DNA from: Anaerolineales bacterium
GTDB lineage: Bacteria; Chloroflexota; Anaerolineae; JAAEKA01
NCBI GenBank assembly: GCA_020634615.1
Contig: JACKBI010000015.1
Coordinates: 100,230-164,229 of the forward strand
Length of the DNA stretch: 64,000 nucleotides
Direction of reading: 5' to 3'
In this document: positions 3,880-15,110 of the stretch, one piece after another
How the letters are laid out: every line of letters begins with the position of its first letter
Position numbering within the stretch: the stretch's first letter is position 1
Translations under genes and position numbers: made by a program
Notes under the pieces: model-generated
Databases searched by the model: none
Seen by the model: the letters and a program-made list of their open reading frames with translations, nothing else
What the model was told of the DNA's origin: nothing

Positions 3880-3991
3880 GTACTAACTCCGCTGAACCGT
3901 CGATTTGTCGGGTGATAGTATAAGCCAGATTGTGATCTGTTGACAACTCCAAACGAGATGTGCTATGCTCGACCAGCCAGGAGGCACATCG

Positions 3992-9179: not shown

Positions 9180-9195
9180 GACGCGTCTACGAGAA

Positions 9196-9242
9196 AGCCA
9201 GGGCCTCCCTGCTGTTGGACGGCAGGGAGGCCCTGGCTTTTT
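9196..9242. terminator. Bidirectional rho-independent terminator
   Basis: aaagccagggcctccctgc-tgttggacg-gcagggaggccctggcttttt: a 16-bp stem with flanking A and T tracts. Confidence 0.8.
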
Positions 9243-9276
9243 ACTTCCGGTTAAAGTTCGGTGGATGCAGCGAACC

Positions 9277-10551
9277 CTACCAGGATTCGCTGTAGATGAG
9301 ATCACCGAGTGGTGGAGTGTAGTAGGTGAAGTCGGTCAGGTTCCCGCGCATCATCCCTCCGTTGGTGTCCAGTACCGAGAAGATGTTATCGTAGGTGGGC
9401 AGCACACCGCCAGGTGGCGGAATTATGGGGCCGGGCAGGCAGCTAAGGCCGCCTCGGGCATGCACAAACCAGACATCGTCGTAGTTGTTCAATATGGTTG
9501 GGTCGAGAGACGTGATCCCGGCGGCTTCCCATTCCTGGCGCACTTCAGCCGCGGGGCGTCCCTGGATGTCGGCGGTTTGAGCGATAGCCCCGTCGCTCAG
9601 CCACGTTTCCAGAGCGTCCACCGATGTGTGAATCGCGTAGATATTGGTCGTGTCTCCGGGCACGCCTGAACAATTGTAATTCACCAGCGAGAGTGCATAG
9701 TCGGTGATCCAGTCGGGTTGAAGCTGTGAGCGGTTAGCGCGAACGCCGACATCTGGCAAGTATGTCTGTGAACTCTGCAATGGCGCGCGCGAGCTTGCTT
9801 GCCCGATCATGGTCTGTGCCACAGGGATCATCTTCTCGACAGACCATTCGGACGTGTACATGACGTAGCTCAGGTCGCCGTCCACCCACATCAGCACTCC
9901 CAATACGGCCTGATTGATGCCGTCTACGGCTACCACGCCCGGATCGTGCGCTAGGACAGGCGTCCCGTTGATATCGATGATGCGGCTCTGGCCCCTGCCG
10001 GCCTCAGCTTCGCTCAAAGCCCACCTGTGATACTCGATTGCCGCATGATCTCGATAAATCGAGATCATGATTCCGTCCGAGTAGTGAAGCGCGACGGCGT
10101 GCTGGGTGGGAGATAACTCGATGAATTTCAGCGTAATGCCGTCGGGCAGCAGCGATGGCAGCCGGATCGGTACTCCCAGGGCGGCTTCAGCCTCGTCCAA
10201 CGTCACGTATTTGCCGCCATCATAGTTATGACCATCTGCGCGCGGGATCGGGGGAATGAAATGAAGAACCGGCCCCGTGGGGGTGATATAGGGCAGGGGC
10301 GGCGGCATGGTAGCAACTGGCTGCGGCGTTTGACCGTTGGGCGTAGGCAGAGGGTCGGCCGCTGTAGTCGGTGGAGGCGGGGCAAGGGTGGCGATGATGG
10401 GCGAGGATTGGTCTGCGGCAGCAACTGCCGGCGACAGAGCGCTGCCTCCGGCGCAGCCACTGGCGGCCGCAGCAACGACCAGCAATCCGGCGACGAGAAC
10501 GGCAATTTCCAGACGTACAAACGAATGGTTTTTCACGGTGTGTCTCCTCAA
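9277..10551 (-). CDS. Secreted lipoprotein with a Pro-rich linker and a conserved C-terminal ~160-aa domain of unknown function
   Basis: Lipobox LVVAAAASGC. The C-terminal 160 aa are near-identical to the C terminus of the 10720..11868 gene. Confidence 0.6.
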   Translation of the reverse strand: MRRHTVKNHSFVRLEIAVLVAGLLVVAAAASGCAGGSALSPAVAAADQSSPIIATLAPPPPTTAADPLPTPNGQTPQPVATMPPPLPYITPTGPVLHFIPPIPRADGHNYDGGKYVTLDEAEAALGVPIRLPSLLPDGITLKFIELSPTQHAVALHYSDGIMISIYRDHAAIEYHRWALSEAEAGRGQSRIIDINGTPVLAHDPGVVAVDGINQAVLGVLMWVDGDLSYVMYTSEWSVEKMIPVAQTMIGQASSRAPLQSSQTYLPDVGVRANRSQLQPDWITDYALSLVNYNCSGVPGDTTNIYAIHTSVDALETWLSDGAIAQTADIQGRPAAEVRQEWEAAGITSLDPTILNNYDDVWFVHARGGLSCLPGPIIPPPGGVLPTYDNIFSVLDTNGGMMRGNLTDFTYYTPPLGDLIYSESW

Positions 10552-10719
10552 TTCAACCCGGCTTGAAAAGCGCTGGTGCTGTGATCACAAGCTAGCAGGA
10601 CACTGCATTGGGATTGGCCTTAAACTCCTGAACCGAAACGCACAGGCCTCCTTGCTATTCGACAGCAGGAAGGCCCTGACTTCTTACCTCCGGTCAAAGT
10701 CTGGTGGATGCAGTGAATC

Positions 10720-11868
10720 CTACCAGGATTCGCTGTAGATGAGATCACCGAGTGGTGGAGTCCAGTAGCTGAGGTCGGACAGGTTCCCACTCATCAGCGA
10801 GCCACCTGTGGTGTCCAGTACCGAGTAAATGTTATCGTAGGTGGGCAGCACACCGCCAGGTGGCGGAATTATGGGGCCGGGCAGGCAGCTAAGGCCGCCT
10901 CGGGCATGCACAAACCAGACATCGTCGTAGTTGTTCAATATGGTTGGGCCGAGAAACGTGATCCCGGCGGCTTCCCATTCCTGGCGCACTTCAGCCGCGG
11001 GGCGTCCCTGGATGTCGGCGGTTTGAGCGATAGCCCCGTCGCTCAGCCACGTTTCCAGAGCGTCCACCGGTGTGTGAACCGCGTAGATATTGGTTGTCTC
11101 TCCGGGCACGCCTGAACAATTGTGATTCATCAGCGAGAGCGCACGGTCGGTGATCCAGTCGGGTTGAGGCCGCGAGCGGTTGGCGCGAACGCCGACACTT
11201 GGCAAGAATGTCTGTGAACTCTGCGATGGCGCGCGTGAGCTTGTCTCACTCTCCACCACATTTATGTTTACCATGTAATCATCATCGAAAAATTGGTCCG
11301 GATTAACCAAGCTACCAAGTGGTGGTGTGAAATCAGGCTCGGTGAACGCTCCGATCCCGATTTGAACAGCATCTTCAGTCAGAATTACGTAAATGTTGTC
11401 ATATTCCGGCGGTTCCCAACCTTCTGGTCTAAGGTCTTCCGAAGGAAGGGTCAACGGCATTGTCTTGGTACCAACTTGGAAATTGACTCCTCCACGGACA
11501 TCAATCACCCAAATTGTATCTTGCAAAGCATAAAACTCATCTGGCAGCCGGCCAATCTGAGTTCCATTCCATTCGTTACGCACATCGGCTTCGGGACGGT
11601 TTTGCACGCGCGCCGCAGTACGGATTTCGCTTTCACGTAACCAATTTTCGAGTTGCGTAGCGGAAACCTCTGCGGCGTAGACCTTTGTGTCCGCGCTTAG
11701 ATTACCAGCATCTAGTTCAACACTACGTAAAGCTTGTTCCACAATGGAAACCTGCGACACAGTTGATGCGCTTGCCCCTGATCGCCTAAGAAGGCTTGTA
11801 CCTGTAATGATCATGCTTATCACGACAAGCATGATTCCAACACTAACTACTGCGCTACGGTGTGACAT
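10720..11868 (-). CDS. Membrane-anchored secreted protein carrying two copies of the same unknown ~150-aa domain
   Basis: N-terminal signal anchor. The proximal domain copy is diverged and AT-rich; the distal copy is near-identical to the 9277..10551 C terminus, and the duplication includes the downstream terminator. Confidence 0.6.
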   Translation of the reverse strand: MSHRSAVVSVGIMLVVISMIITGTSLLRRSGASASTVSQVSIVEQALRSVELDAGNLSADTKVYAAEVSATQLENWLRESEIRTAARVQNRPEADVRNEWNGTQIGRLPDEFYALQDTIWVIDVRGGVNFQVGTKTMPLTLPSEDLRPEGWEPPEYDNIYVILTEDAVQIGIGAFTEPDFTPPLGSLVNPDQFFDDDYMVNINVVESETSSRAPSQSSQTFLPSVGVRANRSRPQPDWITDRALSLMNHNCSGVPGETTNIYAVHTPVDALETWLSDGAIAQTADIQGRPAAEVRQEWEAAGITFLGPTILNNYDDVWFVHARGGLSCLPGPIIPPPGGVLPTYDNIYSVLDTTGGSLMSGNLSDLSYWTPPLGDLIYSESW

Positions 11869-11925
11869 AGAATACGCCTCCTGATTATGTTTGCAGGGAT
11901 TGGTAGTTGAAAGTAAGGAACGAGG

Positions 11926-12762
11926 TCAGTTACAGCCACCTATGAACCACGAGTTACTTCCATAGGAAGTAGCCTGATAGCTCGTGTTAGGTGTAGTGAT
12001 GACCATGCCGTAGTTTGTCCCTACATTTACCCACTGATGGCTTGTATTTTTATACTTGACTTGAGAGAACGTACTCGGCCCCAATCCATTGTTAGGGGGA
12101 TTCTGGACTTCTCCGCCGCCAATGGTAAGTGCTGGCACTACGAAGTCTAGCCAAGCTCCAGCCACCAAGTTACTATCGATATAGGCAAGATGGCCTGGCC
12201 CACTTGCGTCTTTCTCAACCCTGTATTCATGTGTTTGCCCAGGTGGTGCATTCGCAACATCCATTTTCGAGTATCCGTTGTAGTTCTGCACAATTACAAC
12301 GTGGCGGGTTTCAAGTTTCCAACTACCGTAGCGACTACAGCCTGGCGTCACGAAGCAAGGATCCTTTAACCAGCCACTTTCAAGGACATGCCAACCACCT
12401 TGGGTTGGGTAGCCTGCTATTCCAACTCTCATGAACGACCACAGGCCATCACGTATAGTTGGATCACCCACGGCAATGTAAGATCGAATGCCAATTGGCT
12501 GGAGAGAAGCATTTATTTCTCCCCACGCATTACATAGCGTACCGCTAGATCCACAGTAGCCACATGTCCCCGTTTGGAGAAGAGGCTTCTCAACTTCCTC
12601 TTTTGGAGCACCGCTGTTTTGCGGTTTTGCGTTGGCTCCAGGTACCATGATCAATAACAGGAAGATCAGAGAAATTCCCGCCATTGTTGCTCTACGTATC
12701 ATGTTTGGTTCCTCCTGTCTCGAAGCAAATATCCGTGGGTTTGAACGCCCTCGAATGCGCAA
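11926..12762 (-). CDS. Secreted Cys-containing hypothetical protein (low-GC island)
   Basis: Signal peptide MAGISLIFLLLIMVPGANA; CGYCGSSGTLC motif; GGAGG ribosome-binding site; local GC about 50% against a 65% background. Confidence 0.55.
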   Translation of the reverse strand: MRIRGRSNPRIFASRQEEPNMIRRATMAGISLIFLLLIMVPGANAKPQNSGAPKEEVEKPLLQTGTCGYCGSSGTLCNAWGEINASLQPIGIRSYIAVGDPTIRDGLWSFMRVGIAGYPTQGGWHVLESGWLKDPCFVTPGCSRYGSWKLETRHVVIVQNYNGYSKMDVANAPPGQTHEYRVEKDASGPGHLAYIDSNLVAGAWLDFVVPALTIGGGEVQNPPNNGLGPSTFSQVKYKNTSHQWVNVGTNYGMVITTPNTSYQATSYGSNSWFIGGCN

Positions 12763-12840
12763 TTTGTCGCATCCCTGTTTTTAACCTCTATTTGGAAAAC
12801 CCACATTCCAGCTTCATTATCATCAATACAATCATATCAT

Positions 12841-12852
12841 CCCCCCCCCCCC
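12841..12852. repeat. C12 homopolymer (G12 on the coding strand of the flanking genes)
   Basis: Twelve consecutive C between the LuxR stop and the start of the secreted-protein gene. Confidence 0.9.
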
Positions 12853-12896
12853 GTGTCTACTACACTTTAGAGCAGTTTTTCACTATTCGGCGCGTG

Positions 12897-13178
12897 CTAC
12901 GTCTTCACCCATCCCTGCCGAATCGCAACCAGCGCAGCTTCGGTGCGCGAGGCCACGCCCAACTTGCGAAAGATGTTGCGGATGTGAAACTTGACCGTGT
13001 CTTCCGTGACGTTCAACTCCCTGGCGATCTGGGCATTGGTCGCGCCTCTTGCCAGCACGCGCAACACCTCCAGTTCCCTCGACGTAAGAGGGCATGGCGT
13101 AGGCTCTTCGTCATGCTCCGGTGCCGCGTCGTTGTTGGTTGGATCTTCTGTACCCATGACATCCCATCCCGATCCCAT
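12897..13178 (-). CDS. LuxR-family HTH transcriptional regulator (stand-alone GerE-type HTH)
   Basis: LTSRELEVLRVLARGATNAQIARELNVTEDTVKFHIRNIFRKL. Confidence 0.8.
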   Translation of the reverse strand: MGSGWDVMGTEDPTNNDAAPEHDEEPTPCPLTSRELEVLRVLARGATNAQIARELNVTEDTVKFHIRNIFRKLGVASRTEAALVAIRQGWVKT

Positions 13179-13208
13179 GACCCTGTCGAAGTCGTTCTGG
13201 CGGTTGGT

Positions 13209-15110
13209 TTATCCGTTGGCTGCCGGAGCCGCGCCGGGCCCGACCAGGAAATACGCAGCCCAGGGGGTGTAGCTGCTCTCCAGCACCTCATCAGTGAGCA
13301 CCTGGCCGGCGCTGTCGCGGATCACGCGTCGCCAGGCCACATCCATGCCGTTCTTGGCGTATTCGACTTGGCGCACTTCGCCCTCAGCCAGGCTGGCGTC
13401 GGTCTGGTAAATCGGCGCAGGCGGCGGCGATTCTTTCAGAATCTCCGGACCGGTGACTTCCACGTTCCAATCCGGTTTGGTACCGTAGAAGTTGAAGGTC
13501 AGCGTGCCTTTGACCTCATCCATGACCGACTTGATGATGATGTGGTGGTCGGTGGTGTTGCGGAACTTGAAGTCCACTGTCGGCGTGTAGATCGTGGCAT
13601 CCAGACCGGGCTGACCGTACCAGCCAACCACGTAGCCGTGGTTCCAGCGCTCCTCGATGGGGAAGCCGCCGTAGAACGCAGCGCGGAACGCCGTGGTGCT
13701 GACCTGGCAAACGCCGCCGCCGATGCCGACGGCCGTCCGGTCGCCCCAGATGATCAGCGAGTCGGTGTAGCCGTTTTCAGCGTTCACGTCGCCGATGGCG
13801 TTGTTGAAGGAGAAGACGCCGCCGGGCGGCACCACGGTGTTGTCCACCGCGTTGGCCGCCGTCGCGATGTTGTGGACGCGGTCGGCGCTGGAGCCTTTGA
13901 AGCTGGTGGTGCCGGTGGCGACCAGCTCCACGATGCCCATCTCGTCGATCTTGTGCATGTTGACGGCCGGCTCGACCAGCGTCAGCGGCAGCAGCGCGTT
14001 GTGGTCATTGCTCAACACGGCCTGGCGAATAGTGGCCAGCGTCGCGTCGACGTCCAGCACGCGGCCGGTCTGACTGGGTGTCACCACCTTGATCTCGCCG
14101 GTCTTCGGGTCGTAGTCGAGGCGAGCATCGCGCGGCTCGCGTGCCAGCTCGGCCGCCCATTCCTGGACCTGCGGGCGCAGCGGCTCCACATCCAGGCTGG
14201 CTAGCAACTGCATGCTGCCGTCCAATTGGGGTGTCAACTCGAGGCTGGCCAGATCGGTCAGCGTCTCTTGCGAGATGGTGAAGTTGGGCGGCGGCGCTTG
14301 GGCGTCCAGGTCCGGCTCGGCGGCGGTCAGGACCACCGGACCGCTCAATACCTGGCGCATGAACACCTCAGCCTGGCTGACGTCCGCCAGCAGCGGGGTC
14401 TCTTCTTTGACCACCAAGTCGACCGATCCACCCTCGTTAGCCAGCAGCGCATCGTAGATTGCCGAGTGGCTGGCCGATACATCCAGCGCGTAGCCGGTCT
14501 GGCTGGCTGTTGAAATCACATCCTGTCCGTCAACGCGCAGCGTAGCCTCGGCCACGGGACGGTTGATCTCGCGAGCCCGCGCTTCCAGCCAGGCCAGCCC
14601 GGCGGAGCGATCGACCGCTTCGTCGGCCAGCACCTCGCGGCCGAAACGGTAGGCCGAAAGCTGCTCCTGTAGATTCGCCTGCAACGCAGCAATCTGGTCG
14701 GTGAACTCCAAACCTCCCCCTTGGCGCCGGCCGATCTCATAGGCAGCCGCGGCCGCGCTGTCCGCGTCGAAGTTGACACCCAGGTCGGCGGCCGTCAGCG
14801 TCCACGACTGGTCGCCGTAGCGAACCACCACCGGGGCCAGCGGGTACGGGTCAAAGGCGACACTCAACCGTTCCCTGGCTTCAGCCAGCGTCAGCCCGCT
14901 CATGTCGATGCCGCGCACCGAAACGCCATCGTAGATGCGGTTCTGGTGTTCGCGCTGATAGTAGGCGACGCTGCCAATGGCAAACACCGCCGCCATCCAG
15001 ACGATCAGCGTCAGCAGGATCAACAGGACGCGCAGCAACGTGCCAAACCAGGAGGACTTGGCTGACTGTGGTTGAACAGTGGGTGGTGTCGTGGCTCTGG
15101 CGTTGGCCAT
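13209..15110 (-). CDS. VanW family protein (N-terminal TM, peptidoglycan-binding-like repeats, VanW domain)
   Basis: The C-terminal GGGVCQVSTTAFRAAFYGGFPIEERWNH is the VanW signature. Confidence 0.75.
   Translation of the reverse strand: MANARATTPPTVQPQSAKSSWFGTLLRVLLILLTLIVWMAAVFAIGSVAYYQREHQNRIYDGVSVRGIDMSGLTLAEARERLSVAFDPYPLAPVVVRYGDQSWTLTAADLGVNFDADSAAAAAYEIGRRQGGGLEFTDQIAALQANLQEQLSAYRFGREVLADEAVDRSAGLAWLEARAREINRPVAEATLRVDGQDVISTASQTGYALDVSASHSAIYDALLANEGGSVDLVVKEETPLLADVSQAEVFMRQVLSGPVVLTAAEPDLDAQAPPPNFTISQETLTDLASLELTPQLDGSMQLLASLDVEPLRPQVQEWAAELAREPRDARLDYDPKTGEIKVVTPSQTGRVLDVDATLATIRQAVLSNDHNALLPLTLVEPAVNMHKIDEMGIVELVATGTTSFKGSSADRVHNIATAANAVDNTVVPPGGVFSFNNAIGDVNAENGYTDSLIIWGDRTAVGIGGGVCQVSTTAFRAAFYGGFPIEERWNHGYVVGWYGQPGLDATIYTPTVDFKFRNTTDHHIIIKSVMDEVKGTLTFNFYGTKPDWNVEVTGPEILKESPPPAPIYQTDASLAEGEVRQVEYAKNGMDVAWRRVIRDSAGQVLTDEVLESSYTPWAAYFLVGPGAAPAANG

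Follow-up and report, generated by a model that had tools for sequence, protein, structure and literature searches.

What role a run of 12 identical bases plays upstream of a gene for a secreted protein in an environmental Chloroflexota genome is the question raised by this locus. The window, which denotes the whole 64-kb stretch of DNA analyzed here, carries the run as G12 on the minus strand, the strand of the gene, at 12841..12852. On the forward strand the sequence at 12840-12853 reads T-C12-G, which confirms the limits given for the C12 run in the initial annotation. This putative mutable element is the sole homopolymer of at least seven bases in the window, the runner-up having six, and under a first-order Markov model the number of C runs of at least 12 bases expected per 64 kb is 0.005, so that the rarity ascribed to such homopolymers was borne out. 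Across the 270 kb fetched for related loci, homopolymers of at least eight bases were likewise found only as promoter tracts, one error-ridden contig end excepted. The intergenic region holding the tract spans 194 nt (12703-12896) and was rightly described as AT-rich, with a GC content of 46% in a window of 61% GC (the genome had been taken to be 65%). On its upstream side, the tract lies 44 nt downstream of the stop codon of a gene encoding a LuxR/GerE regulator that consists of the HTH only (12897..13178, minus strand; 93 aa, or 86 from the second ATG; Pfam GerE, E = 3e-23), which is itself preceded by a VanW-domain gene (13209-15110, minus strand).

The extent of the gene downstream of the tract required correction. 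The open reading frame list begins it at TTG 12762, and the initial annotation had set its limits at 11926..12762 and placed the tract about 80 nt from the ATG. The TTG was rejected in favor of ATG 12702, which is preceded by the ribosome-binding sequence GGAGGA at 12710-12715 (minus strand) and is called by independent gene callers, with 258 aa in 140 blocks of public collections. The gene hence occupies 11926..12702 on the minus strand, encodes 258 aa of a rare family, and begins 138 nt downstream of the 3' boundary of the tract. By inspection, the N-terminus exhibits a signal peptide, MIRRATMAGISLIFLLLIMVPGANA, which ends in PGANA and is followed by Lys, in agreement with the product having been predicted to be secreted. 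The further description of the protein as Cys-rich was generous: it contains six Cys residues, three of which (C116, C122, and C257) are conserved in the family.

A consensus scan of the region 12400-13300 detected a single promoter-like site, of a strong sigma-70 type, which lies on the minus strand and scores 10/12 with a spacer of 17 nt and a TGn extension. Its −35-like hexamer is TAGACA (12854..12859, minus strand; 5/6 against TTGACA in the promoter scans), and its −10 hexamer is TATGAT (12831..12836, minus strand), located both by the promoter scans and by the alignment with a more distant relative (L044) described below. Between them lies the 17-nt spacer C-G12-ATGA (12837..12853, minus strand), which contains the TG of an extended −10 element at 12838-12839, and the position of the promoter predicts a transcription start near 12824 on the same strand. 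Most of the spacer is therefore the G12 run itself. The earlier proposal that the tract is located in the promoter region, where its length would alter the spacing, could accordingly be narrowed to the interval between −35 and −10, in which the modal G12 gives the optimal spacing of 17 nt in the promoter scans. Sites scoring at least 10/12 with TGn and a spacer of 14-19 nt number only seven among the 128,000 positions of the window, six of them being intergenic and directly upstream of genes; this rarity and placement indicate that the extended −10 consensus is informative in this organism. Other near-consensus extended −10 promoters of this kind (at least 10/12, TGn) were found in intergenic positions upstream of genes at 3940, 17870, 35741, 35877, and 51179, and the first of these (3940) extends essentially up to the start codon at 3965, so that it may give rise to a leaderless mRNA. 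Adjoining the −35 hexamer is a GTGTAG block (12860..12865, minus strand) that the alignment shows to be kept in L020, L021, and L044, and which can be hypothesized as a candidate activator site.

Comparison with relatives supported the same placement. Sister species, collinear with the window and 85-87% identical to it at the nucleotide level, carry repeats of other lengths at the same place, namely G9 with a spacer of 14 nt (L020) or GAG10 plus TA with a spacer of 19 nt (L021/L022). In a more distant lineage (L044/L045), whose protein is 38% identical, the LuxR gene and a homologous promoter are kept, and this promoter reads GTGTAGT-TTTACA, followed by the non-repeat 17-nt spacer GGGCGCATTGGGTTTGA and TGaTACAAT. 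This homologous promoter fixes the register of the two boxes together with a working distance of 17 nt, the same as G12 provides in the window. The LuxR/GerE gene is located directly upstream in three lineages, i.e., the window, L044 (85-348), and L046 (42-266), and is not found there in L026 and L027. A further homologue, 75% identical to the window protein and without a tract, occurs in L024 (1002-1777) and L025 behind the promoter-like TTGACT-16-TATACA; in the three contigs that carry it, a GAG codon of the window is replaced in frame by TAA immediately behind the signal peptide, and the gene thus appears to have been inactivated by a nonsense mutation instead.

The initial annotation had proposed to compare the length of the tract among related strains, uniform length counting against a phase-variable promoter. 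Contigs were collected by exact-protein look-ups and one DNA-pattern scan of metagenomes, the latter adding one extra contig, and they stem from many samples and pipelines (ENA 'WANG18-1' scaffolds, ENA MEGAHIT contigs, JGI, Logan, and two NCBI MAGs). Only contigs with both flanks were counted, each of them a single time and with the window included among the G12 cases. This gave 29 independent contigs, which match the window over kilobases at 97.7-100% identity and carry five alleles: G12 in 14, G6AG5 in seven, G13 in five, G11 in two (one of them at a contig end), and G14 in one. The length is thus variable among near-identical contigs and not uniform. The variation is also confined to the tract. 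In a 1583-nt segment, 23 of the 29 contigs differ nowhere outside the tract and yet present four alleles. This alignment has no indel column outside the tract, nor has a second one that covers 15 sequences over 3025 nt. The latter includes four sequences that are identical apart from the tract, i.e., the window and L002 (both G12), L033 (G13), and L034 (G6AG5). The LuxR gene, the secreted-protein gene, and the region between them, approximately 1250 nt in all, contain only three SNPs. With 12 G residues here and 9-14 nt in relatives, the tract exceeds the length of at least about 8 nt that is long enough to slip, and it is polymorphic between conserved flanks, though sequencing error at a homopolymer is possible.

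Such error is the basis of a competing explanation, according to which the tract is a fixed G12 and its apparent variation arises from slippage of polymerases or sequencing together with the choices of assemblers at a homopolymer. At least seven short-read contigs, from several projects, do end exactly at the tract (L008, L039, L040, L041, L049, L050, and L051), three of which (L008, L039, and L040) have garbled, error-laden bases beside it; moreover, G14 was seen in one contig, and G11 in one solid contig and one contig end. We therefore treat the G14 (L017) and G11 (L014, L041) calls as provisional, since they could be errors. The contig ends themselves may reflect either length heterogeneity within the sample or plain sequencing failure after poly-G, and the breaks are compatible with, and not diagnostic of, high-frequency reversible switching. 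Against an artefact stands the recurrence of alleles across independent projects and assemblers: G13 was found in five assemblies and G6AG5 in seven, from different projects and assemblers, and both are too recurrent and independent to be artefacts. G6AG5 is in addition a substitution and not a product of slippage, and the sister species differ from the window by two to three G residues plus changes in the flanks. Also, a single pipeline yields different alleles for different samples, grouped by accession order. Within one project, G13 and G14 occur solely in ERZ27309172-186, and G12 and G6AG5 in 083-144; this is a post-hoc observation, made with accession order not used as time, and it shows alleles structured by sample, unlike the scatter from random error. 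An artefactual origin of the length variation is hence quite improbable. On the practical side, the locus systematically breaks short-read assemblies.

Distant homologues, with about 42% amino acid identity, have their own unrelated promoters in which G12 or C9 lies between TTGACA and the −10 hexamer, so that the occurrence of promoter tracts extends beyond this gene. In the Caldilineae MAG HK-STAS-CHLO-19 (L026, also L023), whose protein is 42% identical to that of the window, the promoter reads TTGACA-AATC-G12-TGA-TAGAAT with a spacer of 19 nt, and its context comprises a different upstream gene, then a clear terminator, and then the promoter. A related pair (L047/L048), with proteins 74% identical to this lineage, carries TTGACA-AATC-G12-TAGAAT with a spacer of 16 nt. 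All four complete observations in the L026/L047 lineage have G12, and the difference in spacer length is due to a neighboring 3-nt indel. An uncultured Chloroflexia MAG (L027) exhibits TTGACA-T-C9-GTGG-TACAAT, with C on the gene strand; its C9 may be undercalled if nanopore reads underlie the assembly. The protein of this MAG is 61% identical to that of the tract-less L044, which indicates that tracts have been gained or lost repeatedly. Together with the TAGACA-17-TGaTATGAT arrangement of the window and the L044 alignment, the architectures in L026, L047, and L027 locate the tract within the spacer by consensus as well as by comparison. Within one gene family, a homopolymer recurs, on either strand, in the spacers of promoters that are otherwise unrelated, and this pattern speaks for mutability as the target of selection and against a sequence-specific site.

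In line with the phase-variable promoter suggested in the initial annotation, these observations lead us to consider it probable, from sequence comparison, that the G12 tract forms the mutable part of the spacer in a slipped-strand contingency promoter serving a two-gene unit, made up of the secreted-protein gene and a partner gene downstream. By analogy with known systems, slipped-strand mispairing during replication would add or remove G residues, and the spacer would become 16, 18, or 19 nt long (14 in a sister species), so that the two boxes would be misaligned for the sigma factor. Transcription would then be raised or lowered, falling off from the 17-nt optimum, and the outcome would be a heritable and reversible heterogeneity, on/off or graded, in how much of the secreted protein is produced. 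In G6AG5 the 17-nt spacing is kept and the repeat is interrupted, and this allele would represent a stabilized, 'locked-on' variant. Two features weigh against a switch. An extended −10 element leans less on the −35 hexamer, and changes of the spacer might therefore tune expression weakly; and spacers of 14 and 19 nt are two to three steps off the optimum, which is far for a one-step switch.

The first of these features gives rise to the alternative that the tract is real and hypermutable but functionally neutral, being tolerated in a spacer of indifferent sequence, with the extended −10 element keeping the promoter active at all observed lengths with no adaptive switch. The TGn motif is present, many alleles coexist with no linked compensatory change seen, and the tract length is constant in the L026/L047 lineage, all of which would agree with neutrality. 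Unselected homopolymers of 12 nt should decay, however, whereas the tracts persist in at least three unrelated promoter contexts, in one of them on the opposite strand, and they are the only runs of at least eight bases in 270 kb. The modal length, furthermore, gives exactly 17 nt, as in the repeat-free homologous promoter. Hence, we regard neutrality as unlikely and retain the contingency promoter as the preferred reading.

The tract might also act through structure or at the RNA level, as a G-quadruplex, as a signal at which transcription of the upstream LuxR gene pauses or terminates, or as part of a structured leader. Its position 44 nt past the LuxR stop codon would place it in any read-through transcript of that gene. 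Nonetheless, Rfam searches returned no match in the whole window at gathering scores, and none in 12600-13000 even at E ≤ 1; the predicted RNA fold of the intergenic region is not more stable than that of shuffled sequences (z = +0.55) and leaves the tract unpaired; and the terminator scan detected nothing on the gene strand. A known structured RNA or a terminator was dropped on these grounds. Additionally, L026 and L027 carry the tract without an upstream LuxR gene, and in L027 the homopolymer is located on the other strand. We accordingly give hardly any credence to a structural or RNA-level role. The predicted 5' untranslated region of approximately 120 nt (12703..12824, minus strand, from the predicted start) does contain, on the same strand, a small hairpin ATGCG-N8-CGCAT (12755-12772) and an 8-nt perfect inverted repeat, GTGGGTTT and AAACCCAC (12735-12742 and 12797-12804). 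The inverted repeat and the 5' arm of the hairpin are identical in L020 and L021, whereas the 3' arm matches in L020 and differs by one substitution in L021.

A contingency promoter of this kind would fit the porA/fim type, here in environmental Chloroflexota. One-base changes in the poly-G spacer between −35 and −10 alter the transcription of porA (PMC3899988), and porA strains differ in tract length (PMC2562373). The arrangement in Neisseria meningitidis resembles that of the window in having a G homopolymer of approximately 9-12 nt as the spacer and an exported product; it differs in that the bearer here is an environmental Chloroflexota bacterium from activated sludge and not a host-adapted pathogen, and in that the cargo is a predicted secreted protein of neprosin fold with its partner and not a porin. 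TA repeats in hifA/hifB and poly-A in vlp shift the −35/−10 spacing through repeat number and bring about phase variation of surface structures (PMC3899988). The repeat is a dinucleotide in Haemophilus influenzae and poly-A in Mycoplasma hyorhinis, and hifA/hifB share a bidirectional promoter, whereas the window promoter is unidirectional. In the case of fim2/fim3, changes in poly-C act as the switch (PMC2562373). Bordetella pertussis and the window have in common a C/G homopolymer in the promoter region, in which small indels switch between high and low expression in the former. The fim tract separates the −10 hexamer from the binding site of BvgA, an activator with an HTH of the LuxR/FixJ type. 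The window similarly has a gene for a LuxR/GerE-type HTH directly upstream and a conserved block adjoining the −35, and differs in that the −35 hexamer is recognizable and that the regulator comprises the HTH only, without a receiver domain. By analogy with BvgA, one could speculate that the adjacent regulator acts at the GTGTAG block.

Phase variation driven by repeats is a textbook phenomenon in host-adapted pathogens, and evasion of immunity serves as its explanation there; to our knowledge, there is hardly any record of it from environmental phyla that are free-living and grow slowly. No publication joining phase variation, homopolymeric tracts, and Chloroflexi was found in a full-text literature search, and the one paper retrieved for Chloroflexota appeared to deal with another subject. 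To the extent that the literature could be searched, novelty lies in the host phylum, the habitat, and the cargo, the mechanism being of a known kind. More tentatively, and with slightly less confidence than doubt, we propose that homopolymer contingency promoters have evolved repeatedly in environmental Chloroflexota (MAGs of the Caldilineae and Chloroflexia classes, from activated sludge and soil) to serve a single rare cassette, which comprises a secreted protein of glutamic-peptidase fold and its partner. Unrelated promoters would have acquired their tracts independently, on one strand or the other, and an allele series of G9-G14 plus an interrupted 'locked' allele would be turning over in the population of a treatment plant. 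If so, Chloroflexota would gain their first described case of phase variation mediated by repeats, and stochastic switching would control a secreted enzyme, possibly a public good or one exposed to phages or predators, in a free-living community. Should the switch work, mutable-promoter bet-hedging would also operate in activated-sludge Chloroflexota, over a new secreted family of neprosin fold, and the allele series already present in public time-series metagenomes could be followed in relation to plant conditions, phages, or predators.

The nature of the cargo was approached through sequence and structure searches. The family is very rare: an exhaustive search gave nine matches among 1.84 billion representatives, word-indexed protein searches gave just five and four relatives, and a genome scan with a 5-sequence alignment found two Chloroflexota MAGs carrying it. 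Pfam yielded no match for the secreted protein, its partner, or the partner's paralogue; with 10 family members at E ≤ 10 only noise was returned, so that membership in Neprosin or Peptidase_G1 was not found at the sequence level, and the family profile had no match among PDB sequences. AlphaFold, run with a 10-sequence alignment, produced a model with a pLDDT of 75.5, in which residues 61-258 comprise a β-sandwich core with most 10-residue blocks above 80. In the PDB, Foldseek matched this model best to neprosin 7zu8 (E = 1.6e-7, TM 0.58) and to the scytalidoglutamic peptidase 2ifr, and the predicted fold is accordingly of the neprosin/eqolisin-like β-sandwich type. Neprosin (MEROPS G3) and the eqolisins (G1) are thus the best structural matches of the modeled protein. 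The catalytic dyad of neprosin is E188/E297 (PMC9343461), and the family has two invariant glutamates (E163 and E198) and a near-invariant one (E108) that are reminiscent of it. In contrast to neprosin and the eqolisins, the window protein has no sequence match in Pfam or the PDB and no pro-domain in the same polypeptide, and the model does not establish membership in a peptidase family.

The partner gene (10720..11868, minus strand) encodes 382 aa, lies 57 nt downstream of the secreted-protein gene, and is probably co-transcribed with it. Homologues of its N-terminal domain follow a neprosin-like gene in every lineage examined. In two metagenomic proteins (P0008 and P0009), a domain similar to the N-terminal domain of the partner is fused in front of a neprosin-like domain, and this fusion suggests that the partner could serve as a pro-domain or inhibitor. 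A paralogue of the partner, with 424 aa, follows next downstream on the minus strand.

The coding sequence of the mature neprosin-like domain and the N-terminal half of the 382-aa gene lie in a 1.33-kb segment (11263-12597) whose GC content is low, at 0.49 in comparison with flanks of about 0.60. This segment is absent from the sister species L020 and L021, in which the same promoter, tract, and signal peptide lead into a 213-aa in-frame fusion (P0004/P0005). Judged from this comparison, the segment is a cassette, either inserted or deleted behind a shared signal peptide. The idea that the tract is a scar or boundary of this cassette was rejected, given that the boundary, at approximately 12597, is inside the gene and that the sister species lacking the cassette keep the tract. 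Neprosin-like genes have a GC content of 0.49-0.52 within contexts of 0.61-0.65 in all lineages examined. Further downstream, the 382-aa and 424-aa genes share a C-terminal module that, together with about 90 nt downstream of it, is tandemly duplicated (9189-9785 and 10630-11263). The number of paralogues varies within the species, as seen when L010, L004, and L001 are compared: at least three additional copies were found in L010, and a 375-aa variant without any copy behind it in L001.
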